Origin: a virus
Taxonomy: Duplodnaviria > Caudoviricetes
DNA: 36,449 nt
Strand: one strand, 5' to 3'
IMG/VR virus record: IMGVR_UViG_3300026270_000555
Span: 1 to 36,449 of that record
Shown piece after piece: positions 1 to 36,449 of the stretch. Under the pieces are notes generated by a model. The model was not told where the DNA came from, ran no database searches, and worked only from the letters and a program-made list of their open reading frames with translations. Made by a program: the position numbers and the translations under genes. How positions within the stretch are numbered: position 1 is the first letter of the stretch; each line of letters starts with the position of its first letter.

Positions 1-85
1 TGGCGTTGTCTCCGCCTGTTTGTGAAGTTGAGCGATTAACTTCTTGTGATTTTAACTTCGCTCTTATTTCAGCCAATGATGCCAT
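1..85 (-). CDS. gp32: 5' end of single-stranded DNA-binding protein (gp32-like); runs off the window
   Basis: Not in the ORF track. ATG at 85 gives MASLAEIRAKLKSQEVNRSTSQTGGDNA, which I recognise as the N-terminus of gp32-like SSBs of large T4-like phages. A GGAGG RBS lies at 94-98. Only 28 codons are visible. Confidence 0.7.
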   Translation of the reverse strand, partial: MASLAEIRAKLKSQEVNRSTSQTGGDNA

Positions 86-161
86 AATGTAAGCCTCCTA
101 TATTGCCTATGTTTGTTTGTGCCTAAATGTATATTAAGCATTTCTACATAATATACAATGA

Positions 162-167
162 TATTTA
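162..167 (-). promoter_or_regulatory. Late-type promoter TAAATA upstream of the SSB gene
   Basis: GATAAATA on the minus strand; same core as the motif before most structural genes (T4 late consensus TATAAATA). Confidence 0.55.
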
Positions 168-174
168 TCAGAAA

Positions 175-591
175 TCAAGTACTATTATTGGTAATATGAC
201 TATTTTTTTGTGCTACAAAGAAAGGCCAGCCAAATTTAAAGGTGTATATGCCATTGTATGAGAGATAACCATAGGTTTTTAAAGATTCGTTTTTGCTAGT
301 CTTGTATTCTCCTATATCGTCTAGTAAACCAGCATTGTCTTGTGTGATATTACATTTGATATCTTTGACAACGACATACACGTCTTCAAGAATTTGGTTG
401 CCTTTCAAAACTGTATCTCTGTCTGACTTGTTCTCTAAACTTACTTCTAGAATGTTTTGGCCAATGTGAGGTGTAATATCTATTTTTTCATTGGTATAGA
501 TTCCGTCATGCACAATCTCTCCGTTCATTATTATTTTTCCTGCAGGAGATTTGTTGTTTGTTTTTCCTATTTCTAATTGTAGTTGAATCAT
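175..591 (-). CDS. Hypothetical protein (138 aa), translationally coupled to the radical SAM gene
   Basis: ATGA overlap at 588-591 with the upstream stop codon; beta-rich pattern; no motif recognised. Confidence 0.75.
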   Translation of the reverse strand: MIQLQLEIGKTNNKSPAGKIIMNGEIVHDGIYTNEKIDITPHIGQNILEVSLENKSDRDTVLKGNQILEDVYVVVKDIKCNITQDNAGLLDDIGEYKTSKNESLKTYGYLSYNGIYTFKFGWPFFVAQKNSHITNNST

Positions 592-2093
592 TTTTTATTT
601 TTTTTCCAGTGCCATATTAGTCTTTTTGCTATACTCATTTTAGAACTAAATCTATAATCTGTCATGTAGCCATACTGATATGCTTTTTCTAATAATTCGA
701 TCCACCATTTAACTCTATTTTCAAAAGTGTTTTCAGGATTTTGTTTTGACTTCCAATAATCGTATTGGTTACCTGTTAAATTTTCTTTGACATCTTCCCA
801 TTCGATTTCTAACCTTCTTGCGTGGGTGTCAGCAAGTGGACTTCCTGGGAGTAAGTGCAATATTCCTACAGGATTGACAATCATATCAGGAAATTTGATA
901 TCTTTATAAGTTTCTACTAGACTCATTGTGTCATCAAAATCTTTTCTAGTCTCAGTTGGATATCCAACCATTAAATTCCATTCTTGGGTTATGCCTACTT
1001 TATGTAAACTTTGTATCATAAGATGTAAATCTTCATTATTAAATTTTTTACCCATATGATTTCTTACGGCTTCACTACCCGATTCAACCCCTACAATTAC
1101 GTGTTTACATCCTGCTTCTTTCATTAAATCATAATCTTCCGGTGTGGTTTGTCCTTTGGGCCTTGCTATGTATTCACCATAATAAGAAATTGTGTTTGGC
1201 AAACGTTTTGATAGTGCTTGGTTCATTTGTCTAAACGCTTTCATTGATCCATTTATTAGACTGTCAGACATCATGAAATGTTTTATACCTTGTTTTTCGT
1301 ATATTTCGATCATTTCATCTGCAATTTTATTTCCATCCTTAAAAACAAATTTAGGCTCAAATGTAAACACATCACAAAAAGTGCATTTACGTACACAACC
1401 TTTTGATCCTGTAATAGTTGCCGCGGCCGCTTGATCTGTGAGGTGAAATATTTTAGAATGTTTTTCATACAAGTCTGTTTTATAATCTATATAAGATGGT
1501 GTAGGTACCTGGTTTAGTTCTTCGTGTGTCAGTTGTCTATGAGTTTGGACTTTTCCTCTCGTTCCGTTAACAAGCATATCAACCAATGTGCTTTCACTTT
1601 CATTAATGAACACAGTATCGGCTAATCCTGTTTCCAACATTATATCCGACATCATTTTATTATTTTTGTATTTTTTCTTTACATTATCATCTTGGCTTAT
1701 TCCAGGACCACCAAGAAGAATTTTTTGTTTTGGATTTATGCTTTTAATTTGATAACAAATATCATGGGTAAAACATAAACTTTGATAACTTAGAAGTGAG
1801 AAGCCTATCCATTCTGCATCATAATCTAACAATCTTTGTGCTATTTTTTTAATATATTTTTTATACCATTCCCTCGCCTCATCGGTCATCTCATTAAAAA
1901 ATTGCAAGTATTTTTCAATTTCTGTGGCAAAGTTTGTTTTGTTATAATCAATTTGTATTTCTATATTAAGGTCTAGGGTGGTTGTCTTTAACCCATGTGA
2001 ATCACAAATACCTTTTAGTAGTGCAGGTGCCATAGGCATGGCATCAATTTTTGAGAACGGATTAAAAACAAATAGGGCGTGGTATTTTGACAT
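588..2093 (-). CDS. Cobalamin-binding-domain radical SAM protein (class B methyltransferase-like architecture)
   Basis: CxxxCxxC in SKGCVRKCTFC; N-terminal B12-binding-type domain (P.MAPALLKG, IGFS, ILLGGP); GVESGS and LMVGYPTET motifs. Confidence 0.88.
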   Translation of the reverse strand: MSKYHALFVFNPFSKIDAMPMAPALLKGICDSHGLKTTTLDLNIEIQIDYNKTNFATEIEKYLQFFNEMTDEAREWYKKYIKKIAQRLLDYDAEWIGFSLLSYQSLCFTHDICYQIKSINPKQKILLGGPGISQDDNVKKKYKNNKMMSDIMLETGLADTVFINESESTLVDMLVNGTRGKVQTHRQLTHEELNQVPTPSYIDYKTDLYEKHSKIFHLTDQAAAATITGSKGCVRKCTFCDVFTFEPKFVFKDGNKIADEMIEIYEKQGIKHFMMSDSLINGSMKAFRQMNQALSKRLPNTISYYGEYIARPKGQTTPEDYDLMKEAGCKHVIVGVESGSEAVRNHMGKKFNNEDLHLMIQSLHKVGITQEWNLMVGYPTETRKDFDDTMSLVETYKDIKFPDMIVNPVGILHLLPGSPLADTHARRLEIEWEDVKENLTGNQYDYWKSKQNPENTFENRVKWWIELLEKAYQYGYMTDYRFSSKMSIAKRLIWHWKKNKK

Positions 2094-2099
2094 ACAACT

Positions 2100-2128
2100 A
2101 GTATATACTATGTATGGGAAAATGTAAA
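2100..2128 (-). promoter_or_regulatory. sigma70-type promoter for the radical SAM gene (probably leaderless)
   Basis: TTTACA(2128-2123)-17 nt-TATACT(2105-2100), then 6 nt to the ATG; no SD. Confidence 0.6.
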
Positions 2129-2133
2129 TGGTA

Positions 2134-4047
2134 TTATGAAAGATTAGCCAGTGACTTAATTCTGTCTAATTCTGTATTAATCTGCTCTGCTTCTTCCTGT
2201 GCTTCTTCTGGTATTTTTGAATTGAATTGTTCTATCGCTGTTTCAAGTGCAGTTGCTTTGTCGCCGCCATCTTTTAAATGTTGTTCAATGTAAGGTTTAA
2301 GATCTTCAAATGCAACACCTTCTTGTTTTGCTCTTTGTAATTCCATTCTTCTTTTAATTACTGCGGCCTTCATTTTAGGATCGCTCATTAAGTCTGGATT
2401 TTTTTGAATATCGTTTAGTGTTTTTAATTTTTCTCTTCTGTCTTCTTCGTCTTTTGGTGCAGTAGCATATTCATTTGCTGTTTGTTCTGCCCATGATTCA
2501 AAAGCAACTTCTTCTTTAGCGCCATATTCTTTAGACTTGTCACCGTATTCTTTACCTTTGATGTTTTTAAATTTGTTTATGTCTTGTGGATCTTTTCTAA
2601 CTTCGTCTTTGTATTCTGGATCTGATTGCATTTTTTTGTAATCATCGATGTATCTTTTTGCTAGTTGTATTGCAATTTTTTTATTACTGTTATAGTCTGG
2701 TCCAGGTTTGAAAGATGTTTGTCCTTCTTGCTCTAATCCGTCTGCTACTCTTGAAGCAAAGTTAGCCACTCTGTCTTCTTCACCTTTTGGTGTTGAAATT
2801 AGTCTTGATGCTATATCTGAAAGTATTGAGCCTAACATAGTGTTCTTGTCTTTAAATTTTGTTACTGATAACATTTTGTCTGCGGCATCGTCTTTTCTCA
2901 AAACTAATTTGTTGTCAGGATCAGTTAAGAAACCTTGTACAACTGCACCGTGATCAACTGGTGCTTGTATTGGTGCATCAATTGGTTCATCACCTGGATC
3001 TAATTCTGTTACTGGCTCTTCTTTAGGTGCATTTTCTAGTTCAGCCATTACCTTGTTGATAAGTGGGAAAGCATCTTCTACTCTTTTATCTAAATTAGTC
3101 ATTGTAAATTTTTCTCTTAATTTAGCCACTGTTTCGTCGTCTAGTATTTGTTCTTCTGATGTTTTGAAATCTTTACTTGCATTTTCGTAATGTGTTTGAT
3201 TAGAAAGGCTTCTCATATAACCTCTTAAATTTTCTAATTTTAATTTTGTTTTTTCAATTATATCACCTGCGTTGTCATTTAATTGATCTTTGTTTGAAAC
3301 ATATCTTGAAAATGAATTTAATTTTGCAATATCTTCTGAAGTCGAAACAATGTGTTGTCCAAATTCGTCATGTGGTCTTCCGCCATTTGCAACGTGTCTC
3401 ATCATTGCTCTCGCACCTGCTAGGTGTGTCATTGGATACTTGAATCTTTCACCATCTTCGTTTTCGATGTATAGTGATTGTATCTGTCTTGATCTAGCAC
3501 CAGGCACAGTTTCGTCAACTTTGCCTTTGTGTCTAATTATTAATTTTGTTTTGTCTAAATTTTCGTATGAACGTTTTGCAGTACCCGTAAGTCCTTCTGC
3601 AACTGGTGCCTTTTCAACACCTGCTAATTTTGTAATTCTTTCTAGTTCTTCCGACATCTCATCGTTATTTACCGTTTGATTGGTGTCTGCTAGATTCTTG
3701 TAATCCTGCTTTGTAAGATTGCTTTTAGTAATATCACGCACATCAAAGGATAATTGATGCTCTACTGCAAAGTCTTTTAGTTCTTTAAGGAACGCATACC
3801 ATTCGTCTTTGCTGTCCTCATCAATTTTGTCCACTAAATTACGGTTGTAAAACACTTTCATAGTACCGTCTTCTGCTATGGATACACTGACTGAACCAAA
3901 TGTGTCAGCATCTTCTTTAAACTCAAATTCAAAAAATACAGCACTGCTTGGGTCTGCTGTTGCGGCACCGTTTTCGTCACCTAATCTAATATTAGTGAAC
4001 TGTGATCTAATTTTGTTGAATAAATCTTGTGAGTTTTTTGGGTTCAT
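2134..4047 (-). CDS. Phage protein (637 aa), acidic, probable head/internal virion protein
   Basis: Long ORF after the terminase with its own TATAAATA; ELERITKLAG and C-terminal ELDRIKSLA motifs. Function is inferred. Confidence 0.7.
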   Translation of the reverse strand: MNPKNSQDLFNKIRSQFTNIRLGDENGAATADPSSAVFFEFEFKEDADTFGSVSVSIAEDGTMKVFYNRNLVDKIDEDSKDEWYAFLKELKDFAVEHQLSFDVRDITKSNLTKQDYKNLADTNQTVNNDEMSEELERITKLAGVEKAPVAEGLTGTAKRSYENLDKTKLIIRHKGKVDETVPGARSRQIQSLYIENEDGERFKYPMTHLAGARAMMRHVANGGRPHDEFGQHIVSTSEDIAKLNSFSRYVSNKDQLNDNAGDIIEKTKLKLENLRGYMRSLSNQTHYENASKDFKTSEEQILDDETVAKLREKFTMTNLDKRVEDAFPLINKVMAELENAPKEEPVTELDPGDEPIDAPIQAPVDHGAVVQGFLTDPDNKLVLRKDDAADKMLSVTKFKDKNTMLGSILSDIASRLISTPKGEEDRVANFASRVADGLEQEGQTSFKPGPDYNSNKKIAIQLAKRYIDDYKKMQSDPEYKDEVRKDPQDINKFKNIKGKEYGDKSKEYGAKEEVAFESWAEQTANEYATAPKDEEDRREKLKTLNDIQKNPDLMSDPKMKAAVIKRRMELQRAKQEGVAFEDLKPYIEQHLKDGGDKATALETAIEQFNSKIPEEAQEEAEQINTELDRIKSLANLS

Positions 4048-4054
4048 ATAGTGT

Positions 4055-4062
4055 TATTTATA
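4055..4062 (-). promoter_or_regulatory. T4-type late promoter TATAAATA
   Basis: Exact T4 late consensus, 7 nt before the ATG at 4047. Confidence 0.75.
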
Positions 4063-4144
4063 CGCCTTTTTGCTGAATAGCATATTGGGTCTAAGTCCTT
4101 TTTACCACCAATATAAAGCGGTCTGTGTTGTTTGTAGACACCAT

Positions 4145-5737
4145 TTATCCTGTGAAAGAGCCAAATATAGGCATTGGTGTTAGTTCTGATGTTCTGTCTG
4201 TCCACTTCTCAAATATTTTGGGATCAAAATCAGCAAGTACTTTCATCATACGTGTCATAAGCAAACAAGCACTTACTAAATCGTCATGCTGGCCAGGTTT
4301 TGCTTTAAAACTTAAACCACTTGCTACGAAATCTTTAAGTTCAGATATTAGTAATTGTGAATTAATTTTCATTTTTCCGCCCTCAATTAACTCTTTAAAT
4401 TTTGTACAAGCATCAATTTTAAATTTAGCAGTGGTGTTAAATCCTCTTCTAAATTTTCTTCTATGTCCTTTTCTTATCGGTTCTGACAAAAACATTCCTT
4501 GTATATTTTCTTCACCTATATCCATTACTCTTAATAGTGCCGCTTCACCGATAGTATTGTTTTCCATGCTGTAAAATATTTGTGGTGATGCACTTGCATC
4601 TTGTTCCATAATTGTATCGTATATGTGTTTGTTGATACCTTGCAAAATTCTTATCTGTTGATTCATTGGTGTAGTGTTATGATGCCATTCACCGACCTGT
4701 TCAAATGTTGGCAATTCAAAAACCTGTATGGCCGCAAAGTCTCCGCCTGTACCCATGGCAGGATCAAGTGATACCATATAAGTCATGCCTGGAGTAGGCT
4801 TTTTAAACCAACGCACTTGTCCTGTTGTTTCTACAGGTGCGTTGCCTTCCATGTCTGCTAGTGTGATACTTGATATTAGTGTTTCGTCAAAGATTAAGAA
4901 TTCACATTCATGTTCCCTTCTAAACCTTTCTTCACCTATTCTGGCTCTTTCTGCATCTGCCCATGTTTCATCTCTGTCAGGATGTTCTGACCAATGTGCT
5001 TTCATGGCATAGAAACCGTTAGTTCCAGTTATTTTATCATTGCCGTATTCGTCAAATCTTTTGTTTGCTTCTTTCCAAATTAATGCAAATTGATCTTCAT
5101 CTGAGTTAGGTGTTGATGTGATCATACACTTACCACCTGTTGACAGTGTTGGAGATAGTGAAGTCCAAAATTCTTTGGCTTTTTCTGGTGGTTGCACGAA
5201 TGCAAACTCATCACAATATATTAATGTAAGTGACATACCCCGTCCTGTGTTTTCAGTTGTAGTAGTTGCCATAATCTTCGAACCGTTGTCAAATTCTATA
5301 CTGTTCCTATTGTATTGTGTTACACCTGCTTTAATCCAACTAGGCAACATCTCATAAGCATAACGCACCCTTGACATAATGTCGGAAGCACCTGCGTATT
5401 TGTGTGCCGCAATTAGTATCTGCGAGTCTGGTCTAAACATAGCATACCATATTAAGAAACCTGATGCACAGGTTGTTTTTCCTGTTTGCCTAGGTAACAT
5501 GGCAATTGAAAATCTATGATCGTTATAACTGTTAATTAATCTTTCTTGATATGGGTAAGGTTCAAATGGTAAAGATCCTTTTACTGGATGTTGTATTTTC
5601 ATGAACGTTTTCATAAAGAATAATGGGCCAGTTTTTGGGTCCATACACTGTTCAAGTTGTAAAACTTGTTCTTTGGTGTATTTGTGTTTCTTATTGGCTT
5701 TCTTAACTTGTTCGCCGTCTAGTGATACATACGCCAT
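4145..5737 (-). CDS. gp17: Terminase large subunit (gp17-like)
   Basis: PYPYQ adenine-binding motif, Walker A PRQTGKT, Walker B LIYCDEFAF, TSTPN coupling motif, nuclease motifs LDPAMG and HDDLV; no intein or intron seen. Confidence 0.95.
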   Translation of the reverse strand: MAYVSLDGEQVKKANKKHKYTKEQVLQLEQCMDPKTGPLFFMKTFMKIQHPVKGSLPFEPYPYQERLINSYNDHRFSIAMLPRQTGKTTCASGFLIWYAMFRPDSQILIAAHKYAGASDIMSRVRYAYEMLPSWIKAGVTQYNRNSIEFDNGSKIMATTTTENTGRGMSLTLIYCDEFAFVQPPEKAKEFWTSLSPTLSTGGKCMITSTPNSDEDQFALIWKEANKRFDEYGNDKITGTNGFYAMKAHWSEHPDRDETWADAERARIGEERFRREHECEFLIFDETLISSITLADMEGNAPVETTGQVRWFKKPTPGMTYMVSLDPAMGTGGDFAAIQVFELPTFEQVGEWHHNTTPMNQQIRILQGINKHIYDTIMEQDASASPQIFYSMENNTIGEAALLRVMDIGEENIQGMFLSEPIRKGHRRKFRRGFNTTAKFKIDACTKFKELIEGGKMKINSQLLISELKDFVASGLSFKAKPGQHDDLVSACLLMTRMMKVLADFDPKIFEKWTDRTSELTPMPIFGSFTG

Positions 5738-5744
5738 AGTAAAG

Positions 5745-5750: not shown

Positions 5751-5776
5751 ATGCTTTAAAGATGTTAGGAAAAGTA

Positions 5777-6871
5777 TTACTTTGCTTCTTTATCTTTGAT
5801 GGCTTTTTTCATTGGTTCTTTTTTGTCGCCATCTTTGTCCATATCTAAAAAGTCAGGTTTTGCTTTTGCTTCTGCAACTTTTGCCGCTTCTTGATATTCT
5901 TTTTTGAAACCTTCGTATTGTGCTCTTAGACTGTTTGCTAAATCTTCTTCAGTAATTGTGTCTTCGAAAGCCTTAAGTTCATTATCACCTGGGTGACCTT
6001 TTTGTATTTGAACTTTCTTTCTGTTTAAACCACCTGAATTGGTATTAACTAATGAATCAGTGTCTTGTACTTTTACATCTGGTTCGTTATCAAATGTTTC
6101 TTCTGCTTTCTCATCATCTGGTGCAGTAACAACATCTCTCATTCTAGCCATGTCCATAGAACCCGTTGCGTCATCTTGATCCATTTCTGGTTCTGCTTTT
6201 GGTTCATCAGCACCTATCATTTTTGCATCTACTGGTTGCACACCTGCTAGTTTTAGAATTTGCATCATCATTGATGCTTCTTCTGGAGAATCAGTTGAAA
6301 TTTGTATTGCTTCGTTTACTTGTTTTTTGTCTTCTGTTTTCATTGTATCTGTATTTACCTCGAAATCGCTATCTCTTAATGTATGCTCTTCGTCTCCAAC
6401 TTTAAATTTATCACCTTTTTTAAGACCAGCCGCCTTCGCTTTTTGTACTGCCTGTGCAAAAGCATTTCCCTCGTCTGTAGGTTGCTCTGAATCCATAGCA
6501 GGTTCCATATCTCCTACTTTTTCACCCTCATCGTCATACTCATCTGCAACCATTCTTGCCGCAGTTTCATATTCATAACTTTGTGGGAAAGGTAATTCTT
6601 TTGATTTTTTAACAAGTGCCGCTACAACATCTCTTTTTGGCATTTTTAAATTTCCGTCTTCGTCTTGGAATTCACCTATTGCCTCTTGAGCGCCAATGTG
6701 TATGTCTGACATACCACCTTCGTCTGTTTTTATTGTTGGTTCACTTTGAACAGCATTTTGCACAACAGCCTGTGGGTTTGTTGCTTGAACGTTTGCTACT
6801 GCATCTTTAACTAATTCTGGTTTAGTTTCTGCAATCTCAGTTAACTTCTTTAGTACGTCAATCATTTCCAT
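5777..6871 (-). CDS. Acidic low-complexity protein, probable prohead core/internal head protein
   Basis: Very D/E/K-rich; several (I/L/V)xE sites; QILKLAG motif; C-terminal DMDKDGD (DxDxDG) loop. Confidence 0.65.
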   Translation of the reverse strand: MEMIDVLKKLTEIAETKPELVKDAVANVQATNPQAVVQNAVQSEPTIKTDEGGMSDIHIGAQEAIGEFQDEDGNLKMPKRDVVAALVKKSKELPFPQSYEYETAARMVADEYDDEGEKVGDMEPAMDSEQPTDEGNAFAQAVQKAKAAGLKKGDKFKVGDEEHTLRDSDFEVNTDTMKTEDKKQVNEAIQISTDSPEEASMMMQILKLAGVQPVDAKMIGADEPKAEPEMDQDDATGSMDMARMRDVVTAPDDEKAEETFDNEPDVKVQDTDSLVNTNSGGLNRKKVQIQKGHPGDNELKAFEDTITEEDLANSLRAQYEGFKKEYQEAAKVAEAKAKPDFLDMDKDGDKKEPMKKAIKDKEAK

Positions 6872-7504: not shown

Positions 7505-8026
7505 TTAGTCTTTTTTAAGTAGTTTCTTCATTAATTCATTACGATCTGAGATAACAAAACCGTCGGATTCCTCTATAGGACCACCGTCTTTATTGCTTTG
7601 ATCTAACTTCTGCTTTTTAAGTTGTAATTCAATCATTTTTAGTTTTTTGTCAATCTTGCCGCTTTTTGCATCTATGGCATTTCTCAAGAAATTACTGGCA
7701 ACCTCGAAGATACGCCCTGAATAACGTGAGTCAACGTTCATGCCCAAGTCCATTAAATTCTTGTAACTCTCTTCTGATTCGATAGCCAGTTTGTCTAATT
7801 CTAAATCTGACAGTTCTCCAAGTCCTTTTACTTGTGGTAAAGCGGCCGCAACTTTGTCAAATTCTGCATATGATTTTTTCAATGCCGCGGCAGTTTTAGG
7901 ATCGACATTTTTCATTACTTCGCCTGTCTTTTCTTTGTTTGCTTTGGCTTGTTCTTTCTTATCTACCTCTTTGAATGCCTCTTTGACATTTGGTAAATTA
8001 AGAATATCTTCTAGTTTCTTTGTCAT
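7505..8026 (-). CDS. Helical protein, possible terminase small subunit
   Basis: 173 aa, coiled-coil pattern, near gp4-like and terminase genes, TAAATA at 8032-8037. The function is inferred from size and position. Confidence 0.45.
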   Translation of the reverse strand: MTKKLEDILNLPNVKEAFKEVDKKEQAKANKEKTGEVMKNVDPKTAAALKKSYAEFDKVAAALPQVKGLGELSDLELDKLAIESEESYKNLMDLGMNVDSRYSGRIFEVASNFLRNAIDAKSGKIDKKLKMIELQLKKQKLDQSNKDGGPIEESDGFVISDRNELMKKLLKKD

Positions 8027-10969: not shown

Positions 10970-13900
10970 TTAGTTCCCTAATTTTGCAATTTCTCCTGTG
11001 TTTTTAATTCTCAACGGTATGTAAATGAATTCAACTGATTTGATTGGCTCAATTGCTATATCTACATACAGTTCGTTTCTGTCTATTCTAGTAGGTGTGT
11101 TGTTTGTGTCATCACAAACTACTAGGAAGTCATACAATGCTCTTTGACCAACAAGTTCTAGTAAGAATGATTCAATTGCTTGTTTGATTTCATTTCTTGT
11201 AAGTTCATCGTTTGGTTCAAATATAAATGGTTTTCCAATTGCATCTAATTGACTTCTTAGGTACACTGCTAATCTAGAAACATTTATTCTATCTAGTGCT
11301 GAACTTGAAGAAGTTTTAGTTAAGTTACCAAAGTTAACAATTCCTGCTCCTGAGAAGAACGTGATTGGGTTAACTTTTACTTCATGCATTGAATCTCTCA
11401 CTGCCTCTGTTACAGATATTGTTTCAAATTCACCTGATGATGCGTTAATGTAACCAACTGATGTTGCATTGTCAACAATACCTCTTCTTGTTCCTGATGG
11501 TGCAAACCATGGGAAAGCAATATTGTCGTTGTTTGCTAAAGTTCTCATCATCATGTGTGACGCTGGAACTACAATTGATTTTCCGCTGTTGTCAGTTGTT
11601 AAACCTGATGGATAAAACACACCCAAGTAATCACTTGCACTTACTAATCCATCTTCGCCGTTATCTAATGCTGACGCTGAGTTGTTTGCCCAGTTTTGGA
11701 TAGCAGTTGATGTTCCTTCTAATCTCATTGGAGTATCTCCAACTACAAATGCTGTGTTGTTTCTGTCAGTGTTTAAGTTAATCATGTTTGAAATCAACTC
11801 TGGATAACCAGGTGTTGCAATAACGTTGAAGCCTCTTTGGTCTTCTCTGATTGCTTGGTTAGTGTCGATCTCTGATTTTAATTGTTCAACAATTACTTTT
11901 CTCTGTGCTTTTCTACCAAAAGATCCAGAACCGTTTGCGTTGTTGCTTGATTTAGTTACCCATCTGTCTGGGTAGTAAGATGCTACTGACTCGTTGCTTT
12001 GTCTTACGTTTCCTAAACCACTTGATCCGCTTCCTGGATATTTTGCAGTTGTGATGTAACTGTTTTTGTATTCTTTAACATTGTAACCACTTCTTCTTGT
12101 GTTCCAAAGTAATATACCTTGTGGGTATGCCGCTGGATCTGGAGCATCTGGATCTAAGAAACCATCACTTAACAATGCTTTGATTGTTGAAGGAGTTCCT
12201 GCCGCTTTGCTAGTTCCTGCCGCTTTATCAGTTGAAGTATGCCATCTTGCATCTGCAAAAACAATACCGTCTTCTGTTGTTTGGTCTGTTTTGTCAACTA
12301 GTTCCCAAGCCGCACCTGATGTAGTTACTGCAACTTGGTTCGCTGTGTTTGAAGAACTTAAAGTTGCTGATGTGTTGTATTTGTAAAGTTTTGGATAGTT
12401 TTCTAAGTCTGAAGTATCAATCCATAAGTCGTTAGTTACAAGTGCAGTACCATCTGATTGTGTAGTTGGTGCTGTTGCACTAAACTGTGGACCATTTGGA
12501 TCTGTACTTGCGTATGCTGTTGCATATCCAACCCAAGTAGTACCATTGTGTGCCATAATGTCAGCAACATCAATGTTTGTGTCATACCATAATGTACCGT
12601 CTGCTGGTTCATTGTTTGGTGTGCTTGTACTTGCTGTGTATGATAATCTTTTCCAGTTAGTTGCGATCACTTCTGATCCTGTTGAAGAATCTTCTGTGTC
12701 ACCTGCAGGTGCAACATATAAGTTGTCCACTAAAGTTGAACTGTTTGCAGTGTAACCACCGTAAGCGTGTGCTTGTGATGTTCCAAAACCAGCATCACCT
12801 AACACGTCACCTGTTCCTGTGTTGTTCATTCTAATGTCACCACCTAGTGTGTGTTCTATAACAATTTCACCAGTTGATAATTTAGATGCTTTGATGTTTA
12901 TAAGTCTTGTTGTTGAATTAGCCGCCGCACTTGCGTCAACTTTTCCGTTTACATCTGCAATAAATGTGTCAGCAGTTGTACCACTCATAGTAATTTCTAT
13001 TGGAGTACTCATTGCCGATTGATTTTTTCTAGATTCACTTATTGTAAATGTTTCTGAACCTGTAAATGTGTGTGAAGTTAATCTACTTGTGATAGTTGTT
13101 TTTCCACCTTCGTATCTGAATAACTGGAAATCACCAACATTGTTTGTTGTGTCATCTTGTGAACCATCTGTTGTGTTAATCTTTTGCTCAGTTACATTGT
13201 ATTGTGCATACAAAGTTCCAACTGTCAAAGCAGTTCCACCGTTAGCCGCATCTAAGTTGTAAATCGCAGAATTATTTGATTCATATAATGGTGCCGCTAC
13301 TGTTGAGAAACTTGCACTTGCTGAACTGTATAATTTAGCAACAATGTTTGCTCCTGAGTTCGCTGAAGTTGTTTTAAACCAAACCGAACCAGTTGGTCTG
13401 TTCTCATCTGCTGTTTTCCAAGTTGGTCTGTTTGTGTGTTTGTCTTGTAAAAATTTAGGTGCTCTGTAGTTTCCTGCTGTGATTCCTAAACCTGCTAATA
13501 GTCCTGTACCTTCTTCAAAGTCAACTATTTCTCTGTTTGTTGAATCACCGAACTCACCACCATCATGGAAAATGTCTAAGTTTCCTGTTGTAGTGTTGAT
13601 GCTTGAACTTACACCTGGAATGTTTGCCGCGTTCAAAGCCGTGTTAACATTTGATAAAGCAGTACCACCTGTCTGTACAGTGATACCATTAATTTTCATG
13701 TTATGGCTGTTTGTAACTGTTGTTCCAGAAGCAACTGAAATAATAGGTAGTGATAAGTGCCATGCACTTGACCCAACTTGTACCCAAGCATTTGCTTCTG
13801 TTTTCTTGTAAATCTTGTTAGTTACGTGTGTTGTATTGATTGCGTAATCACCTGTGATACCAATTGAAGTTTTTGGTACACCAGTTGAAACACCACCTAC

Positions 13901-14410
13901 TAAATCAGTAACTGATGTAATAAGTGTTGGTGCAATCGTTGTGAATTTTTGATCTGTTTTTGACCACTCAAATAATCCATAACTGCTTGATGCAAGGTCA
14001 AACCAGTATGTGCCATCTGTTGGTGCCGCTGTAGGAGCCGATGCACTTCCTAGTAATTCACTAGTGTTAACATTTGCTCTTAAAACGTATGCTCTGTTGG
14101 CAACTCCTAAGAAAGAATATGCCGCTTGTAGACCCCATTCATTTAATTCATAACCATGTAATGAATTGCCTGATGCGTCTTGATAAAATTTTGGATCACC
14201 AAAAGTTTCTGTTAATTCTCTTTGTGAAGAAATCAAATAAGCAGTGTTGGCGTTTGCTGTTTGTGTTCCAGCCGCTGTGCTGTCACCTGCTCCGTTCTTC
14301 TTATCCTGTGATGATGCTACTATGAATAGTGGTGTAGTACCCGCATCTGATGGTACATAAAAACTTTCGTTTATTACACTTACCTCTACTCCTGGTGCTG
14401 TTAATGCCAT
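10970..14410 (-). CDS. gp18: Tail sheath protein (gp18-like) with large central insertion domains
   Basis: N-terminal APGVEV, FGDP; C-terminal PWFAPSG.RRG, DRINVSRL, FEPND, CDDTNNTP..ID.NEL, EFIYIP; AAGGAG RBS. Confidence 0.95.
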   Translation of the reverse strand: MALTAPGVEVSVINESFYVPSDAGTTPLFIVASSQDKKNGAGDSTAAGTQTANANTAYLISSQRELTETFGDPKFYQDASGNSLHGYELNEWGLQAAYSFLGVANRAYVLRANVNTSELLGSASAPTAAPTDGTYWFDLASSSYGLFEWSKTDQKFTTIAPTLITSVTDLVGGVSTGVPKTSIGITGDYAINTTHVTNKIYKKTEANAWVQVGSSAWHLSLPIISVASGTTVTNSHNMKINGITVQTGGTALSNVNTALNAANIPGVSSSINTTTGNLDIFHDGGEFGDSTNREIVDFEEGTGLLAGLGITAGNYRAPKFLQDKHTNRPTWKTADENRPTGSVWFKTTSANSGANIVAKLYSSASASFSTVAAPLYESNNSAIYNLDAANGGTALTVGTLYAQYNVTEQKINTTDGSQDDTTNNVGDFQLFRYEGGKTTITSRLTSHTFTGSETFTISESRKNQSAMSTPIEITMSGTTADTFIADVNGKVDASAAANSTTRLINIKASKLSTGEIVIEHTLGGDIRMNNTGTGDVLGDAGFGTSQAHAYGGYTANSSTLVDNLYVAPAGDTEDSSTGSEVIATNWKRLSYTASTSTPNNEPADGTLWYDTNIDVADIMAHNGTTWVGYATAYASTDPNGPQFSATAPTTQSDGTALVTNDLWIDTSDLENYPKLYKYNTSATLSSSNTANQVAVTTSGAAWELVDKTDQTTEDGIVFADARWHTSTDKAAGTSKAAGTPSTIKALLSDGFLDPDAPDPAAYPQGILLWNTRRSGYNVKEYKNSYITTAKYPGSGSSGLGNVRQSNESVASYYPDRWVTKSSNNANGSGSFGRKAQRKVIVEQLKSEIDTNQAIREDQRGFNVIATPGYPELISNMINLNTDRNNTAFVVGDTPMRLEGTSTAIQNWANNSASALDNGEDGLVSASDYLGVFYPSGLTTDNSGKSIVVPASHMMMRTLANNDNIAFPWFAPSGTRRGIVDNATSVGYINASSGEFETISVTEAVRDSMHEVKVNPITFFSGAGIVNFGNLTKTSSSSALDRINVSRLAVYLRSQLDAIGKPFIFEPNDELTRNEIKQAIESFLLELVGQRALYDFLVVCDDTNNTPTRIDRNELYVDIAIEPIKSVEFIYIPLRIKNTGEIAKLGN

Positions 14411-14890: not shown

Positions 14891-15439
14891 ATCATCGACT
14901 TTTTTGTACAAGTCTTCTAATGTACCGTTGTTATCAATAACGTAATCAAAACTGCTATCAAGCCAATCCCATTCTGATTTATGGGCACCTCGTTCTTGCA
15001 TCTCTTTTTGTGTGGGCAATTCTCCTCTTTTGACACATATAATTTTGCCACCTTTTGCCTTAATTTTTTTAATTTCATTAACAAATCTTGTGTCTGAAAT
15101 TACAGTGTTGTCACCTTTGTATCTTCCCAAACAACTATCTACCCATATGCCATCATACATATTGCCACGCATGACTTCAGTACCAAAGTATTGTAATACC
15201 CATCTAGGTGTGACTGGCTTGCCAAATCTTTCACTCCAAAATTCATCAGGCTGTTCACGCCATTCTCTGCTGGCATCTGTTTTGCCTTCTAACAGTTCTC
15301 TGTCCCAATTGAACATGGAACTTACTGCATCTTTCAAACTTTTTGCAAATGAATCTCTTCTATAACTGTGCTGTGCAACCAGTCTTTCTGCAACTGTGTC
15401 CTTACCAGATCCGATTAATCCTACGATTCCTAATAGCAT
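14834..15439 (-). CDS. gp1: Deoxynucleoside monophosphate kinase (T4 gp1-like)
   Basis: P-loop GLIGSGKDT, SFA.SLKD, TPRWVLQYFGTE, VISDTRF.NE, H.SE and IDNNGTL motifs. Confidence 0.9.
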   Translation of the reverse strand: MLLGIVGLIGSGKDTVAERLVAQHSYRRDSFAKSLKDAVSSMFNWDRELLEGKTDASREWREQPDEFWSERFGKPVTPRWVLQYFGTEVMRGNMYDGIWVDSCLGRYKGDNTVISDTRFVNEIKKIKAKGGKIICVKRGELPTQKEMQERGAHKSEWDWLDSSFDYVIDNNGTLEDLYKKVDDLIIRFEVADTPTKTFSTT

Positions 15440-23289: not shown

Positions 23290-24282
23290 TTAGTGACTTG
23301 TTCTTACTGCCGCTAATACTGAACCTGTACCTGTTGTAGTTTTGTTTGTAAGAGCTCTACCAATTACGTTGAATGCTGTACATTCTGATTTTTGAGCCGC
23401 TTTTGCATAACCTGGTACTGATGCAGAAATAAGTCTGTCACCTTTGTTTACTGTACCAATAACTTTAACGTCTACTCTTCCTGTCATTGCTACGTATGGG
23501 TGTGTGTTGTCATCACCAGCCGCACCGTTCATTTTGAACGCCGCTTGTCCTTCATGAGAAACTACACCAAACACATCGTCTGATGCTTCTTCGTTTACTG
23601 CACAAATTTCTTCTGCTCCGCCTAATGCTACAACTGTTCCTGGTGCTAATACTTCGTTAGCCGCAAATCTTTCTGCAACGTCCGAATATTGCGCCGCTGT
23701 TGCTGTACCTTCTAGGTTTGCTACCAATGTACCTGCTGATACTGTGATACCACCTGATTTGTCAGCCGCTGTCGCAGTTGTTGTACCCATTGTGAATTTG
23801 TCTGCTGACTCATCCCAAATGATTGCCGCGTTGTTACCTGTTGAACCCCTCTCAATAATAAAACCAGCGTCGTTTGATGATGCTGATATACCTGTGTTAA
23901 GTTCAATTAAGTTATCTGCGATTGTTGTGTTTGTTGAGTTAACAGTAGTTGTTGTACCGTTTACTGTCAATTGACCTGTTACAACCACGTTACCTGAGAA
24001 CGTTGCTGAAGTGTCATTGATCACAACTTCGTTATTACCGTCTGCCGCAATCGTGATCGTTCCGTTTGATCCCGAGTCAGTTACTGTAATGCTCGTGTTT
24101 AATTGAGAAATACTGTTTTGCGATAGACCCGCTAATGAGTCATCAACGTATTTCTTGTTTGCGAATTGACCGTCGGCATTTGGTGCCGCAGTTGATCCAC
24201 CTGTAATAGTATTTGCACTTGCTGATATTACTATATCACCAACTGATATACCATTATGTACTCTAAAGTTTCTTGTTGTCAT
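23290..24282 (-). CDS. Fibre-like structural protein (330 aa) with C-terminal chaperone-like domain
   Basis: LTVNGTTTTV...DAG..IERG...WDES module; C-terminal YSDVAERF...PGTVV.LGG..EI...FGVVS...GRV.VKV.G...KGD.L. Confidence 0.7.
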   Translation of the reverse strand: MTTRNFRVHNGISVGDIVISASANTITGGSTAAPNADGQFANKKYVDDSLAGLSQNSISQLNTSITVTDSGSNGTITIAADGNNEVVINDTSATFSGNVVVTGQLTVNGTTTTVNSTNTTIADNLIELNTGISASSNDAGFIIERGSTGNNAAIIWDESADKFTMGTTTATAADKSGGITVSAGTLVANLEGTATAAQYSDVAERFAANEVLAPGTVVALGGAEEICAVNEEASDDVFGVVSHEGQAAFKMNGAAGDDNTHPYVAMTGRVDVKVIGTVNKGDRLISASVPGYAKAAQKSECTAFNVIGRALTNKTTTGTGSVLAAVRTSH

Positions 24283-31712: not shown

Positions 31713-31775
31713 AATACTACTTCAATATTTACCAATTAATCTCCTTGATTAAATCTAACACTAAATATTCATTAT

Positions 31776-32642: not shown

Positions 32643-32845
32643 CCTAGTTCAACACAACAACTAAATCTAATTTGAAAAAAATAATGATATATCAATAGTC
32701 CTATGACTATTCCTTCTAGCCATGCTATGTAGGCAGACATGATTGGATACTTTCTTATAAAAGAAAGTTTGTAATTCCAAAGTTTTTTGAAAATATTACT
32801 CGCCCAACTTGTGAACGTTATGAATAACCGTAACAATGTGTCCAT
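32639..32845 (-). CDS. Small membrane protein; start uncertain
   Basis: One hydrophobic segment (AYIAWLEGIVIGLLIYHYFF); the annotated start overlaps the upstream gene by 50 nt. Confidence 0.45.
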   Translation of the reverse strand: MDTLLRLFITFTSWASNIFKKLWNYKLSFIRKYPIMSAYIAWLEGIVIGLLIYHYFFQIRFSCCVELG

Positions 32846-33260
32846 TACTTATTCCATCATTTACCGGAATCGGAGAACCAAAAGTTATTTCGCCGCCTGA
32901 GTAAGTGTAGTTGGTAGTTGGAATTTGATATACACCTCCAACAAAGACAAGCATATCTGTTGCATCTGTTGGCACAACACTTAAGGTTGCCGCAGTCGAA
33001 CCATCAAGTGTGTTTCCTTTACCTCCACCAAACACAGTTGTAGATCCATCTCCTTGAAACTTGTCAATTACTAAAGTTTTTTCTCTTGATGCTTCTGATA
33101 CGTTGTACCATTGTGAACCATTGTAAACTTGATATGTTGAAGTTGTTAAATTAAAAATTATTTGCCCGTTTTGTCCTGCGGGTCTATTCGCTGTTGTGAC
33201 ACTTGGAATCTCTAGAGTTTGCCCTTGTGTTGCTTGTGGGTTTTTTACGTATCTACCCAT
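32796..33260 (-). CDS. Small modular structural protein (154 aa)
   Basis: IPSVTTANRP..G.I.FN and FQGDGSTTVF...VFVGGVYQ.P modules. Confidence 0.72.
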   Translation of the reverse strand: MGRYVKNPQATQGQTLEIPSVTTANRPAGQNGQIIFNLTTSTYQVYNGSQWYNVSEASREKTLVIDKFQGDGSTTVFGGGKGNTLDGSTAATLSVVPTDATDMLVFVGGVYQIPTTNYTYSGGEITFGSPIPVNDGISNGHIVTVIHNVHKLGE

Positions 33261-33265
33261 GGCTA

Positions 33266-33595
33266 TTATAATCCTATTGTTGAGATAGTCGCTACCACTG
33301 AAGCCGATGAATCTGGTGTTTCAACATAAATTTTATCACCACTTGATAAAATCATTTTCTCAGTATCTATAATGTAAGTGTCAGTACCTTGGATGGTTAA
33401 AGCATTGTAAATTTTGTTATTTTCTGTTGGCACAGTCGTAGATCCATCACTTGGTAAAAGATATATGTTCACAACTGCATCACTGCTTGTTACGTTGCAC
33501 AAATGTATTGATGTAACAGCCGTATCCGCTGATGCTTGAAACACAAAATCAAGTGCTGTTGTTGTAGTAGTTGCTAATCTTTGTCTTATTGCCAT
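33266..33595 (-). CDS. Small beta-rich structural protein (109 aa)
   Basis: TAVTSIHLCN...EKMILSSGDKI; follows a gene ending in AIALG, a pairing I recognise from marine myoviruses. Confidence 0.65.
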   Translation of the reverse strand: MAIRQRLATTTTTALDFVFQASADTAVTSIHLCNVTSSDAVVNIYLLPSDGSTTVPTENNKIYNALTIQGTDTYIIDTEKMILSSGDKIYVETPDSSASVVATISTIGL

Positions 33596-33598
33596 TGT

Positions 33599-34432
33599 TT
33601 ATCCTAATGCAATGGCTAATGCCGTTGCTTTCTTTTTACTTATCAGTTCTCCTTCAGTACCAGAACTGATGTTTGAGTTAATAAAGAACAATCCAGTACC
33701 GCCTCCACCTGCTGTTTTGTTGTAAATTTTGGTTACAGCACTTGCAGTTGGTGTACTAGCCGCCGCTGAAAATGTTAAAGTGTCGTTAATAACCACATCA
33801 CCTGTTCCGTTTGATGCAAGTGTTAGGTTAGCATTTGATGTTGCTGATGATATTGATTCGATATTTGTTAAATTTTGTCCTAGATCAATTGTAATTGTGT
33901 CTGGTTCTGAACCTGCTGTGCTGATGTTTGCTCCACCAACGAATTGTAAAATTTGTCCTGAGTCAACAGTAATTGCAGTTGAATCGTCACCTGCAACTTT
34001 AAGCGAAAATGAACCTGCCGCACCATCGACATAAGTTTTTGTTGCCGCATCTGATCCAGAAGTAGGTTCGCCAACTTGTATTTTTGCCAAAGCCGTATCG
34101 GCAATTGAAGTTCCTGTTCCGTCTGAAGTTGTTGTGACTGCTTTGAAAACGTCATCGCCTTCGTTCCAATACAGTGCCGCGTTGTTTGCCGCTCCTCTGT
34201 TTACTAAAATACCTGCGTCAACATCACTAGGAGTTGAATTGTTTCTGCTTAAAATTATGATTGGATCTTCTATCGTTAATGACGCTGTGTCAATAACTGT
34301 ATTAGTACCATCAACTACTAAATCACCTTTTACTCTTGTTGTTTTTGAATCGAAAATTACTGAATTCGAGCCACCTGCTCCCGTGCCCGTTTTAATTGTA
34401 TAATCACCTGATGTTCTTAAATGCTTTGCCAT
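33599..34432 (-). CDS. Fibre-like structural protein (277 aa)
   Basis: GDLVVDGT...DAGILVNRG...WNE module, DAATKTYVD, C-terminal ALAIALG; TAAATA at 34440-34445. Confidence 0.72.
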   Translation of the reverse strand: MAKHLRTSGDYTIKTGTGAGGSNSVIFDSKTTRVKGDLVVDGTNTVIDTASLTIEDPIIILSRNNSTPSDVDAGILVNRGAANNAALYWNEGDDVFKAVTTTSDGTGTSIADTALAKIQVGEPTSGSDAATKTYVDGAAGSFSLKVAGDDSTAITVDSGQILQFVGGANISTAGSEPDTITIDLGQNLTNIESISSATSNANLTLASNGTGDVVINDTLTFSAAASTPTASAVTKIYNKTAGGGGTGLFFINSNISSGTEGELISKKKATALAIALG

Positions 34433-34450
34433 TTGCTATTATTTATGTAG

Positions 34451-34478
34451 AAAAGGGGGAGCGTGTATCTCCCCCCTT
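34451..34478 (-). terminator. Intrinsic terminator
   Basis: GGGGGAG/CTCCCCC stem followed by TTTT. Confidence 0.7.
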
Positions 34479-34496
34479 AAAGCACGTATTGTTCTA

Positions 34497-34919
34497 TTAT
34501 CTAACGTCGATGTTCGCTTTACCAGAATCTTGACCTTCGTCAGTTCCTTCTGCTTTTAGCGTGTATGGTTTGCTACCTGTAGCACCACCTGCCGTTACAT
34601 AGTGTACTGTGTTGTTGTAGAATTTCTCAACGTATGCAACTGTTGAGTCGTCTAATATAACTTGTACACAAAACTGGTTAGACGTGTTTTGTAATGAACC
34701 TGGAGCAACTGCTTTCAATTCATATACTGCTTCAGATGAGTCTTCCAAGTGTATTTTGAATAACTTAGATCCTCTTTGTGAAACAATGTAAGCAGTAGTT
34801 GAATCAACTTTAGCACCACCTGATGGTCTGTAAGCCGTTACTGCGATTTTTCCTGAAAGGTTGCCACCGAAGTCATTTGCTCCGCTAACAAGTTTGTCTT
34901 TTCTTATTGGTCTTCCCAT
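34497..34919 (-). CDS. Phage protein (140 aa), probable abundant virion (decoration-type) protein
   Basis: MGRPIRK...YIVSQRGSK.F; own late promoter, strong AAGGAG RBS and terminator; close to the capsid gene. Function is inferred. Confidence 0.65.
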   Translation of the reverse strand: MGRPIRKDKLVSGANDFGGNLSGKIAVTAYRPSGGAKVDSTTAYIVSQRGSKLFKIHLEDSSEAVYELKAVAPGSLQNTSNQFCVQVILDDSTVAYVEKFYNNTVHYVTAGGATGSKPYTLKAEGTDEGQDSGKANIDVR

Positions 34920-34926
34920 TTTTTTT

Positions 34927-35017
34927 CTCCTTTAAAGGAGTCCAATCCTAGTTCTCCTAGGTACGCGGTTGGTATATCCGCATAAGTCTTCTACATTGGT
35001 AGAAGCACGTTTGAACT
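34927..35017 (-). ncRNA. Candidate structured 5' leader RNA (four-way junction plus RBS hairpin)
   Basis: Stems AGUUCAA/UUGGACU, CUUCUAC/GUAGAAG, UAUGCGG/CCGCGUA and CCUAG/CUAGG; begins 5 nt after TAAATA (35023-35028). Confidence 0.6.
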
Positions 35018-35057
35018 ATCAGTATTTATTATTTTTTGCGATGTTTAATGTGTGTAT

Positions 35058-35099
35058 AAAAAGAAAGAGTGGTGTAAAAGAAAAGCAGTCACACCACTC
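35058..35099 (-). terminator. Probable intrinsic terminator after the 77-aa gene
   Basis: GAGTGGTGT/ACACCACTC 9-bp stem, 15-nt loop, followed by TTTCTTTTT. Confidence 0.55.
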
Positions 35100-35129
35100 C
35101 TGAGGTTATCGTATTTCTAGATTGTTATA

Positions 35130-35363
35130 TTATTTTCTGTTGTAGATATGATATAAAATCCAAACTGCTACCAACCCAATCAGACCTTGATCTGAAAAGC
35201 CTTGCAGTACGCCCTGGACGTTTCCTATTACAGAAACATTTGGCCAGAACGGAATACCTTGACCGTTGAAAAGGATTTCTAAAACGATTCCTAACGCAAT
35301 CAATGATACTCCTACGTCAGCAATTCCTTTTGCCCATCCTTTTATCTTGTTAAGATAATCCAT
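35130..35363 (-). CDS. Small two-helix membrane protein (77 aa)
   Basis: Two hydrophobic segments, basic C-terminus, GGGAGG RBS, TAAATA at 35410-35415. Confidence 0.75.
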   Translation of the reverse strand: MDYLNKIKGWAKGIADVGVSLIALGIVLEILFNGQGIPFWPNVSVIGNVQGVLQGFSDQGLIGLVAVWILYHIYNRK

Positions 35364-35512
35364 GTTGGACCTCCCTTGTGATTGTAAAGTTTCTTTCGAA
35401 ACTCTGATTTATTTAGAAGTCTAAAATAAAAATAAAACTACCTTATTTGGTCTAAGGTCACTATGGACACGAAAAAAAATTTTAATAAGAGTTGTTAATT
35501 GAAATAAAGTCG

Positions 35513-35544
35513 AAAAAAAAGGGCGACATAAAGCCGCCCTTTTT
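35513..35544 (-). terminator. Intrinsic terminator after the major capsid gene
   Basis: AAAAAGGGCGGC-TTTAT-GTCGCCC-T8. Confidence 0.88.
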
Positions 35545-35566
35545 GAAAATAAAATAAACCTGTGGC

Positions 35567-36449
35567 TTATTTGAATTTTAAGTTTCCTGATGTTACAGCA
35601 ACTTTTCCAACGTAGTCAGCCGCGTTACCAAGTGATGATGCAGTGTTTGTTAACTCTACATAACCGTATCTTGTTAAGAAGCCTACTACTGGTTCGAAAG
35701 TAGCCGGATCAAGAACAACACCTGAAGACATTAAAGGTATGTATGGGCAGTAGAATGCCGGAGCATCTGCCTCACTTGCACCTTTGTAACCTACAAGTAC
35801 GTCTGTGTCGTCTGCCGCGTAAGCGTCAACGTATACTCTCATAGCACCGTTTAAAGTTCCAACGAATTTAGTGTTAGTTGGAGACTCAAAAGTACCTTCT
35901 GTTGATCTTGCAAACGCAGAAGTTGTTGCTGATTGAAGAATAGTTAAAGCAGTTGGAGAAACTACCGCGTAGTTTCCAGCGCCTCTTCTTGTTCTTGTAG
36001 CAATCTGGTTAGCAACTCTGTTGATTAACACAGCCAAAGCCGCGTGTTCATCACCAACGAATGTTGCAGTACCTGATACAGCCGCTTGGTCAAAAGTTTC
36101 AGAAGCAGTTCCTGCCAATGTTCTTAATGATCCAATGATCTCTTGGTCGATCTCAGCAGTAATCTCTTGTGCTAATGCCGCCATGATTTCTGCTTCAACG
36201 TCTATACCTTGTTGTGCTTGAGCATCTTGAGCCGCTTCAAAAGTCCATCTAGCACTTAATTTTCTAGATTTCGCTTCAACCGGTTGTTTCAAGATCTGGA
36301 TTGATAATCTTTTTCCAGGTTCACCTTCTAAAGCCGCTGTTGAAGACGCCTTTGGAGTAGTGTTGTTCTGGTTACCAGAATATGCTTTCGCAATTTTGAA
36401 TGGAGATAATGCTTCTTCACCTGCAGTCGTGTTTGACGCAACTGTGTCT
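35567..36449 (-). CDS. gp23: Major capsid protein (gp23-like), 5' part outside the window
   Basis: VEAKSRKLSARWT.E.AQD, EITAEID.E, TRRGAGN, AFYCPYIPL, FEPVVGFLTRYG motifs. The frame stays open past the ORF-track start (…LEGEPGKRLSIQILKQ) to the window edge. Confidence 0.96.
   Translation of the reverse strand, partial: DTVASNTTAGEEALSPFKIAKAYSGNQNNTTPKASSTAALEGEPGKRLSIQILKQPVEAKSRKLSARWTFEAAQDAQAQQGIDVEAEIMAALAQEITAEIDQEIIGSLRTLAGTASETFDQAAVSGTATFVGDEHAALAVLINRVANQIATRTRRGAGNYAVVSPTALTILQSATTSAFARSTEGTFESPTNTKFVGTLNGAMRVYVDAYAADDTDVLVGYKGASEADAPAFYCPYIPLMSSGVVLDPATFEPVVGFLTRYGYVELTNTASSLGNAADYVGKVAVTSGNLKFK

Follow-up and report, generated by a model that had tools for sequence, protein, structure and literature searches.

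Restriction-type sites are purged conditionally in a clade of PA5oct-like jumbo phages, consistent with a partial deazaguanine shield

The IMG/VR virus record IMGVR_UViG_3300026270_000555, a single contig in its source assembly, was analyzed over its full 36,449 nucleotides (the window, positions 1 to 36449), which by PHROG matches and word counts hold the genes for structure and packaging of a jumbo phage similar to PA5oct and lack the word GCWGC altogether. PHROG matches were obtained for terminase, tail tube, sheath, neck, deoxynucleoside monophosphate kinase, and major capsid protein, the last of these for the 3' part of its gene. The large terminase subunit (4145 to 5737, minus strand), our clade marker, is 54.6% identical to that of PA5oct and Paride (Arenbergviridae, Wroclawvirus), the nearest cultured relatives, and 82 to 96% identical to those of uncultured relatives, which are plentiful in IMG/VR. 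Also on the minus strand are the tail sheath gene (10970 to 14410) and the major capsid protein gene, of which the 3' part is covered (35567 to 36448). CheckV figures for relatives (86,865 bases equated to 24%) imply a genome of about 360 kb, of which the window is about a tenth, and Tara gene names and MED and TMED record titles among the relatives point to a marine setting.

The original prediction, made from the letters of this DNA, was that GCAGC and GCTGC are missing and that Ala-Ala is always routed through GCSGC. Computation over the whole window bears this out: both words were counted zero times, and GCCGC and GCGGC are frequent, with 85 and 11 copies on the plus strand. The estimates that accompanied the prediction, about 35% guanine plus cytosine (GC) and about 20 expected sites, were too low: at the computed GC content of 37.5%, base composition predicts 28 GCWGC sites and a maximal-order Markov model 40. 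One hundred within-gene synonymous-codon shuffles of 34 open reading frames gave 67±4 sites, against 0 observed (z about -16). The gap is thus real and strong, and exceeds codon usage and lower-order k-mer bias in the way that marks restriction-site avoidance. Each of the 88 Ala-Ala pairs opens with GCG (75) or GCC (13), never with GCA or GCT, while the remaining Ala codons are mainly GCA (564) and GCT (172), against 67 GCC and 68 GCG. The three Ala runs quoted as examples are correct and lie on the minus strand, namely GCG GCC GCG GCA (1419 to 1430) in a radical SAM gene, GCG GCC GCT (7841 to 7849) in a small-terminase-like gene, and GCG GCG GCT (12920 to 12928) in the tail sheath gene. Ala-Ala pairs occur at expectation (88 versus 86.3), with no sign of their loss from the proteins of the window. 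Cytosine deamination at a methylated site was rejected as a cause, because these pairs are retained and the site is altered at the central W, not at C. Depletion extends to AGCT (1 versus 97 in codon shuffles), GCGC (6 versus 27), and further word families.

Which copies of these words are lost depends on a neighboring guanine. We define H-G-R as a guanine preceded by a non-G and followed by A or G, and classed sites by whether such a guanine lies inside them, adjacent to them, or nowhere (unshielded). A scan of 368 palindrome families was made, and counts were pooled over 735 kb of coding DNA from seven clade records. In the coding DNA of the window, unshielded sites number 0 versus about 170 expected; they are absent for RGCY, GCGC, GCNNGC, GCN7GC, CGCG, CTNAG, CTRYAG, CTTAAG, GTGCAC, and CAATTG, as is GCWGC. 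The seven records together hold 81 unshielded sites versus about 2,693 expected, and shielded copies are near expectation. By family, the observed/expected counts of unshielded sites in the pool are 2/968 for RGCY, 0/531 for GCNGC, 0/170 for GCNNGC, 3/130 for GCN7GC, 0/76 for CGCG, 19/196 for CTNAG, 32/277 for GCGC, 0/49 for CTGCAG, 0/28 for CTTAAG, 0/41 for GTGCAC, and 11/82 for CAATTG, and those of the internally shielded classes are 3277/3377, 1066/441, 542/553, 1043/1068, 263/347, and 1059/1343. The spacing controls GCN3GC, GCN4GC, and GCN5GC are not purged (unshielded ratios of 0.69 to 1.11).

The sequence around the surviving sites outlines a putative shield. Among 34 dereplicated strong-avoider loci, a 5' G is present on one or both strands at 98 of the 105 AGCT and 134 of the 137 GCGC sites. 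Those GCNNGC words that lack a GA or GG step inside are purged (GCAAGC 14/151, GCACGC 10/51, GCATGC 6/55, GCTAGC 3/38), and those with one are kept (GCAGGC 252/245, GCCAGC 112/104, GCGAGC 24/24). A further G on the 5' side of the step abolishes protection: in the pool, GGGC-type RGCY stands at 60/363 versus 2106/2277 for HGGC. A preceding G is rare, being present before 2 of 104 GAGCT and 2 of 203 GGCGC. Retention is full for HGGC and partial, at 0.35 to 0.64, for HGA and other HGG contexts. The window holds no GGGCT (0/11), keeps GR-containing sites such as GATC (128/104) and GANTC (105/109), and has 39% of its guanines in H-G-R context. Its sole AGCT lies within GAGCTC (23352 to 23357), where a GA step flanks both strands; its six GCGC sites, at 2519 to 2522 and at 6690, 23691, 27053, 29395, and 35979, all have an adjacent H-G-G guanine; and GCNNGC lacks an internal GR step at two places, 15217 to 15222 and 32386, both of them G-flanked. 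Of 10 shield models compared by survivors, HGR (81/2693) and GR (73/2448) performed best. GA plus GGC (289/2984), GA alone (5211/7834), GG alone (1218/4886), HGA plus HGGC, and three control motifs fitted worse and were rejected.

This dependence recasts the GCWGC gap. Since one strand of GCSGC always presents an H-G-G guanine, the portion of GCNGC beyond the reach of such a shield is precisely GCWGC; for RGCY, the corresponding portion consists of AGCT and GGGCT. GCWGC may therefore be just the unshieldable half of GCNGC, in which case the selecting enzyme could read either GCWGC, as TseI does, or GCNGC, two options that counts cannot separate. The proposal that strong selection has long acted against a restriction-type site holds up across the clade; GCWGC as its lone target does not, since the purged words that resemble Type II sites number about 11. 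Among these words are also what we take to be sites of Cac8I, MwoI, DdeI, AflII, ApaLI, and Fnu4HI. The assignment of GCWGC to TseI agrees with PMC6329791; GCNNGC is listed as a restriction site in PMC6286503, and AGCT, GCGC, CGCG, RGCY, CTRYAG, and CAATTG are named as enzyme sites in PMC5567051.

The GCWGC gap recurs in related phages. Of 134 terminase loci, which are related and overlapping and hence not independent, 126 are free of GCWGC, 1 has a single G-flanked site, and 7 show normal counts; this purge is the most absolute and the most conserved and holds over GC contents of 33 to 46%, while AGCT avoidance is patchy on the terminase tree. In a midpoint-rooted FastTree phylogeny of 104 unique terminases, whose root is untested, the non-avoiders displayed fall on a single long branch nested in avoiders, and loss of the purge would be the simple reading of this lineage. 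It comprises loci L126, L131, L132, L134, and L139 to L141, and with record G014 (terminase 82 to 84%; normal GCWGC) it provides a comparison in nature by which a change of host or the loss of a gene may be judged. In G014 the purge was not seen (unshielded 228/316 overall, GCNGC unshielded 63/66). Outside the pool, the purge is repeated in G010 (RGCY 0/400, GCNGC 0/102) and G013 (RGCY 1/144, GCNGC 0/70); both show the pattern for RGCY, GCNGC, GCNNGC, CGCG, and GCGC, and less or none of it for CTNAG and CTRYAG. The mix of words is lineage specific: AGCT is patchy, CTNAG, CTRYAG, and GCGC are relaxed in G032, and TGCA is purged in G010. In the latter, a more distant relative (L274 to L283), the TGCA purge (59/622 in coding DNA) occurs besides that of GCWGC, and its survivors do not follow the G-flank rule. 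Separately, unshielded TANNTA is depleted in the pool (1035/2449; TAAATA 172/752) and in the window; G014, although a non-avoider, shows some of this depletion (37/70), as does G008 (60/136).

Restriction-site avoidance is classical (PMC6286503, PMC12707154). In the survey of Rusinov et al. (2018), about a tenth of viral genomes show site elimination, and virulent double-stranded DNA phages are described with a likewise complete, silent loss of short palindromic Type II sites (PMC6286503). The clade differs from this classical form in that about 11 families are lost only where an H-G-R guanine is lacking. GATC, GANTC, and CCNGG are untouched, unlike in T7 and HTVC008M: in these two negative controls GR-containing sites are purged, GATC (5/106) and CCNGG (9/70) in T7 and GANTC (12/81) in 49 of the 147 kb of HTVC008M.

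Protection of phage DNA by deazaguanines is established (PMC6884629, PMC10484667, PMC10516641, PMC8594841). With DpdA1 of Escherichia phage CAjan, dPreQ0 was mapped at GA and GGC (PMC7544227), and in Pseudomonas phage iggy guanine is replaced at GA (PMC10484667); in both, replacement is limited to a motif and keeps out enzymes that have this motif in their sites, as we propose for the clade. CAjan, where the modification is mapped, shows a footprint of the same kind: in 50 of its 59.7 kb, unshielded versus shielded counts are 0/15 versus 75/71 for CCNNGG, 1/18 versus 124/104 for CCGG, and 1/13 versus 95/90 for CCNGG. CAjan (L583) is also devoid of TACGTA (0/11) and of unshielded CAGCTG (0/8). 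We found no paper stating this conditional purging of CAjan. The dG+-containing DNA of phage 9g remains open to cutting by AluI and, in part, by BstUI, CviKI-1, HhaI, HinP1I, SfcI, and MfeI (PMC5567051); the enzymes that still cut are the set whose sites are purged in the clade.

Close relatives of the window carry a candidate module for such a modification. FolE was detected in 4 of 29 related records, both near-complete ones included, in a module that also encodes QueD and QueE, a T-fold protein bearing the motif LxxxHRHxF, a glycosyltransferase, and a DSGGxQ protein of about 490 amino acids that we refer to as DpdA-like. A homolog of the latter lies on contig C13 of G006, a metagenome-assembled genome (MAG) in which two terminase contigs of the clade are also binned; C13 bears the word signature of the clade (GCWGC 0/39, AGCT 0/94). 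The 80 closest IMG/VR loci of the DpdA-like gene (79 to 100%) together contain 1 GCWGC versus about 975 expected, and 79 of them have none; although fragmentary, they include FolE in 44, QueE in 13, and DpdL in 57 cases. Among 21 long contigs that were searched, two (G033 and G034) carry the DpdA-like gene together with capsid (95% and 97%) and terminase (88% and 90%) orthologs of the window, which physically links the module to the clade. The genome of the window presumably carries it as well. Precursor genes are represented by FolE in G033, a PTPS/QueD-family gene in G032, and a QueE ortholog on C13 of G006; G033 also encodes a Vut_1/YhhQ transporter. The DpdA-like protein shares 33% identity and its gene order with PA5oct and Paride genes and weakly matches a 'TGT domain-containing protein' (E 9e-6); it would presumably have a TGT fold. 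The TGT family PF01702 had no match in five terminase contigs, which do not span the module, and a near-complete clade genome was not returned by the metagenome scan.

We consider it probable that a DpdA-like transglycosylase provides a partial deazaguanine shield at H-G-R and that restriction sites which this shield cannot cover are purged. Following replication, the phage enzyme would replace guanine at H-G-R by a 7-deazaguanine derivative, which would protect sites that include or adjoin such a guanine from host Type II enzymes. At unshieldable sites mutation would be the sole escape, leading to their silent removal, and the lineage-specific mix of purged words would fit a varied pool of host enzymes. 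The modified base would then be the guanine and not its partner cytosine, and the selecting agents would presumably be host restriction endonucleases. Site avoidance and deazaguanine shielding are usually treated as separate strategies; here, they appear to split the work base by base in a widespread uncultured clade. If this is true, the target motif of a DNA modification, here H-G-R, could be read from sequence alone; the method passed CAjan as positive control and two negative controls.

The likeness to CAjan extends to the gene order polymerase, clamp, and dpdA and to the conditional purge of its own unshielded sites. The motif proposed for the clade is broader than that of CAjan on the 3' side and is blocked by a 5' G. 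Further differences are the missing sequence match to DpdA of CAjan, the presence of DpdL and a glycosyltransferase, and QueC, which was found in 0 of 5 and 0 of 3 virus records, all of them fragments. In these respects the module resembles the DpdL branch represented by phiST and ACP17 (PMC10516641), with FolE, QueD, QueE, a DpdL carrying LxxxHRHxF, and no QueC. The DpdL motif is present on C13 of G006 and in G013, placing the module in the QueC-less DpdL branch, and the T-fold DpdL of G013 is 54% identical to that of ACP17 and 31% to the DpdL candidates of phiST. In ACP17, too, a glycosyltransferase gene is flanked by the TGT-like gene and dpdL; a glycosyltransferase is not discussed in the main text of PMC10516641. 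As DpdL is present and QueC was not found, the phage likely inserts 7-deazaguanine itself or else a carboxy-derived form that may carry a sugar. If the proposed shield is right, it also yields a sharp prediction for this pathway, which lacks QueC and is linked to a glycosyltransferase. It is tempting to go further and to see in this abundant marine jumbo-phage clade an undescribed DpdA subfamily inserting a sugar-bearing 7-deazaguanine at H-G-R, with the complement of purged sites revealing both the motif and the restriction arsenal of an uncultured host. Conditional site purging would then serve generally to read the modification motif of a phage from its genome sequence, but we regard this extended version as doubtful.

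PA5oct and Paride share the module and its gene order, and Iyer et al. (2021) noted a deazaguanine system in PA5oct (PMC7824862); our literature search returned no measurement of base or motif for either phage. Nor did it return a publication on conditional purging around a DpdA motif or on the base inserted by this subfamily, subscription papers and supplements lying outside its coverage. The string 'GCWGC' in PMC11094077 is a primer and was discarded as irrelevant, and a moraphage paper (PMC12619734) gave no link to the clade.

Several observations weigh against a motif-specific deazaguanine shield. The published DpdL phages, exemplified by phiST with DpdA3, replace all guanines without a motif (PMC10516641), whereas the footprint of the clade implies partial, motif-specific replacement. 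Since sites that contain G but no GR step are purged, many guanines presumably stay unshielded, which speaks indirectly against a complete replacement of the DpdA3 kind; phiST is absent from the 19 records matched by the DpdA-like query. Phosso and ACP17 (49 kb of each) show no clear footprint, Paride carries the same module yet shows no purge in 41 kb (unshielded 159/144), and the purge in G008 is partial (1170/1897). The module does not lie within the window, and the DpdA-like protein has no sequence match in Pfam, PHROG, or PDB and none to DpdA of CAjan; the match of its profile to the ACP17 gene near dpdL is modest (49.7%, E 1.7e-4). Flank-shielded GGCWGC is purged in the clade pool (0/323) and survives in G013 (9/30). 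The site families were chosen after the scan of 368 families, which included the window. Comparisons of ClpP, a 77-amino-acid protein, and cytochrome b did not identify the host, and no host enzyme was identified.

Among the alternatives, a phage-encoded nuclease, as considered in the original prediction, is improbable but ranks first. It would cut unmodified GCWGC or GCNGC in host or competitor DNA while the phage shields its own GCSGC and purges GCWGC, the other words being lost to host enzymes. The special standing of GCWGC, absent from 126 of the 134 terminase loci while AGCT avoidance fluctuates, would suit such a nuclease, as would the one nested lineage of seven loci that is wholly without the GCWGC purge. 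Nevertheless, no restriction-endonuclease family was found among 111 and 148 Pfam-scanned proteins, although many enzymes of this kind escape Pfam and no complete genome is among those scanned; the nuclease matches were limited to GIY-YIG SegE, a weak PD-(D/E)XK, SNase, UvdE, and exonucleases. Moreover, the purge is present in distant phages (G010, with 57% terminase identity, and G013) and shifts together with the loss of other sites typical of Type II enzymes.

Slightly less probable still is avoidance of host methyltransferases, such as orphan enzymes placing N4- or 5-methylcytosine at GCWGC, AGCT, and other words, or of methyl-dependent cutters such as the BisI family that attack phage DNA methylated in an earlier host, with deazaguanine blocking methylation at GR sites. 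N4-methylcytosine at GCWGC is reported from orphan methyltransferases of Chloroflexi and AGCT methylation from Thaumarchaeota (PMC6329791), marine methyltransferases are mostly orphan (PMC8919816), Type IIM sites include GCWGC, GCNGC, and GCNNGC (PMC6286503), and M.HpaII and M.MspI are blocked by dG+ (PMC5567051). Loss to zero, however, indicates lethal cutting, the change of the Ala-Ala site at the central W leaves deamination without explanatory power, and Rusinov et al. ascribed the weak avoidance of Type IIM sites to overlapping orthodox Type II sites (PMC6286503). A site-specific methylase of the phage, also part of the original prediction, is unsupported: the C5 methyltransferase family PF00145 was found in 0/29 and 0/21 records, all but two of them fragments, and the N4/N6 family PF01555 in 0/5 and 0/26 mostly fragmentary records, the Dam-type family PF02086 not having been searched.

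Restriction avoidance could also be real and the shield a modification of the partner cytosine (Y-C-D) or some other chemistry instead of a DpdA product, which we rate as a shade less probable again. Sequence counts do not distinguish G in H-G-R from C in Y-C-D, and the clade is rich in glycosyltransferases, methyltransferases, and radical SAM enzymes. On the other hand, no cytosine methyltransferase family was found in the mostly fragmentary records, the motif is close to those mapped for DpdA in CAjan (GA and GGC) and iggy (GA), and the order of DNA polymerase B, clamp, and DpdA matches that of CAjan. Codon-pair or mutational bias without any enzyme, favored only by general TA and CG biases, has practically no standing against 0 versus 67±4 sites after codon shuffling, a spacing-specific loss that takes GCN7GC and leaves GCN3-5GC, and the unpurged GCNGC (63/66 unshielded) of the sister lineage G014.

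The host is likely, on weak grounds, an alphaproteobacterium, as suggested by DUF1178, TctA, and DctP and by a phage cytochrome b 61% identical to that of Azospirillum. Compared with cellular copies in 401 genomes, its identity does not exceed 63%. Searches with ClpP and the 77-amino-acid membrane protein returned nearly exclusively unnamed proteins and no host; homologs of the latter, up to 45% identical, occur in 28 of the 401 genomes of the MED657 class. The idea that the GCWGC gap would serve as a handle for host prediction fared poorly, the host being narrowed only to a likely alphaproteobacterium: as the gap may reflect unshieldable GCNGC, absence of GCWGC need not mean a GCWGC enzyme and is a poor host marker. 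Co-binning in MAGs was rejected as host evidence, as the sampled host contigs of two bins lack GCWGC and AGCT depletion. In one of them, a GTDB MAG titled Rickettsiales MED657, contigs C2, C6, C13, and C24 of G006 amount to about 190 kb of jumbo-phage DNA with two terminase copies; the terminase contig of G007 (L081) is binned in TMED41, and the host-like contigs sampled in both bins have other GC contents and no purge.

Unusually host-like cargo is encoded by G032 (L556 to L564), G033 (L539 to L548), and G002 (L149), comprising cytochrome b, an alternative oxidase, SodC, SufB, ClpX/ClpP/ClpA-like proteins, a TonB receptor, a phosphate-binding protein, TctA, DctP, a CHASE2 adenylate cyclase, and a peptide deformylase, as well as a cadherin/RTX-repeat gene adjoining TolC- and HlyD-like genes. 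The window itself, in which no tRNA genes were found, encodes the 77-amino-acid hydrophobic protein mentioned above (35130 to 35363, minus strand), which is 84 to 100% conserved in hundreds of metagenome proteins and has no match in cultured phages. Its radical SAM protein of 501 amino acids (588 to 2093, minus strand) has a weak B12-binding match and is not tied to the proposed mechanism; the gene adjoins a conserved gene upstream of the terminase, and a similar protein is encoded in G032 (L558:9885-11435). About 12 consecutive radical SAM/SPASM-like genes, recognized by sequence inspection and local similarity only, lie at L454 on contig C6 of G006.

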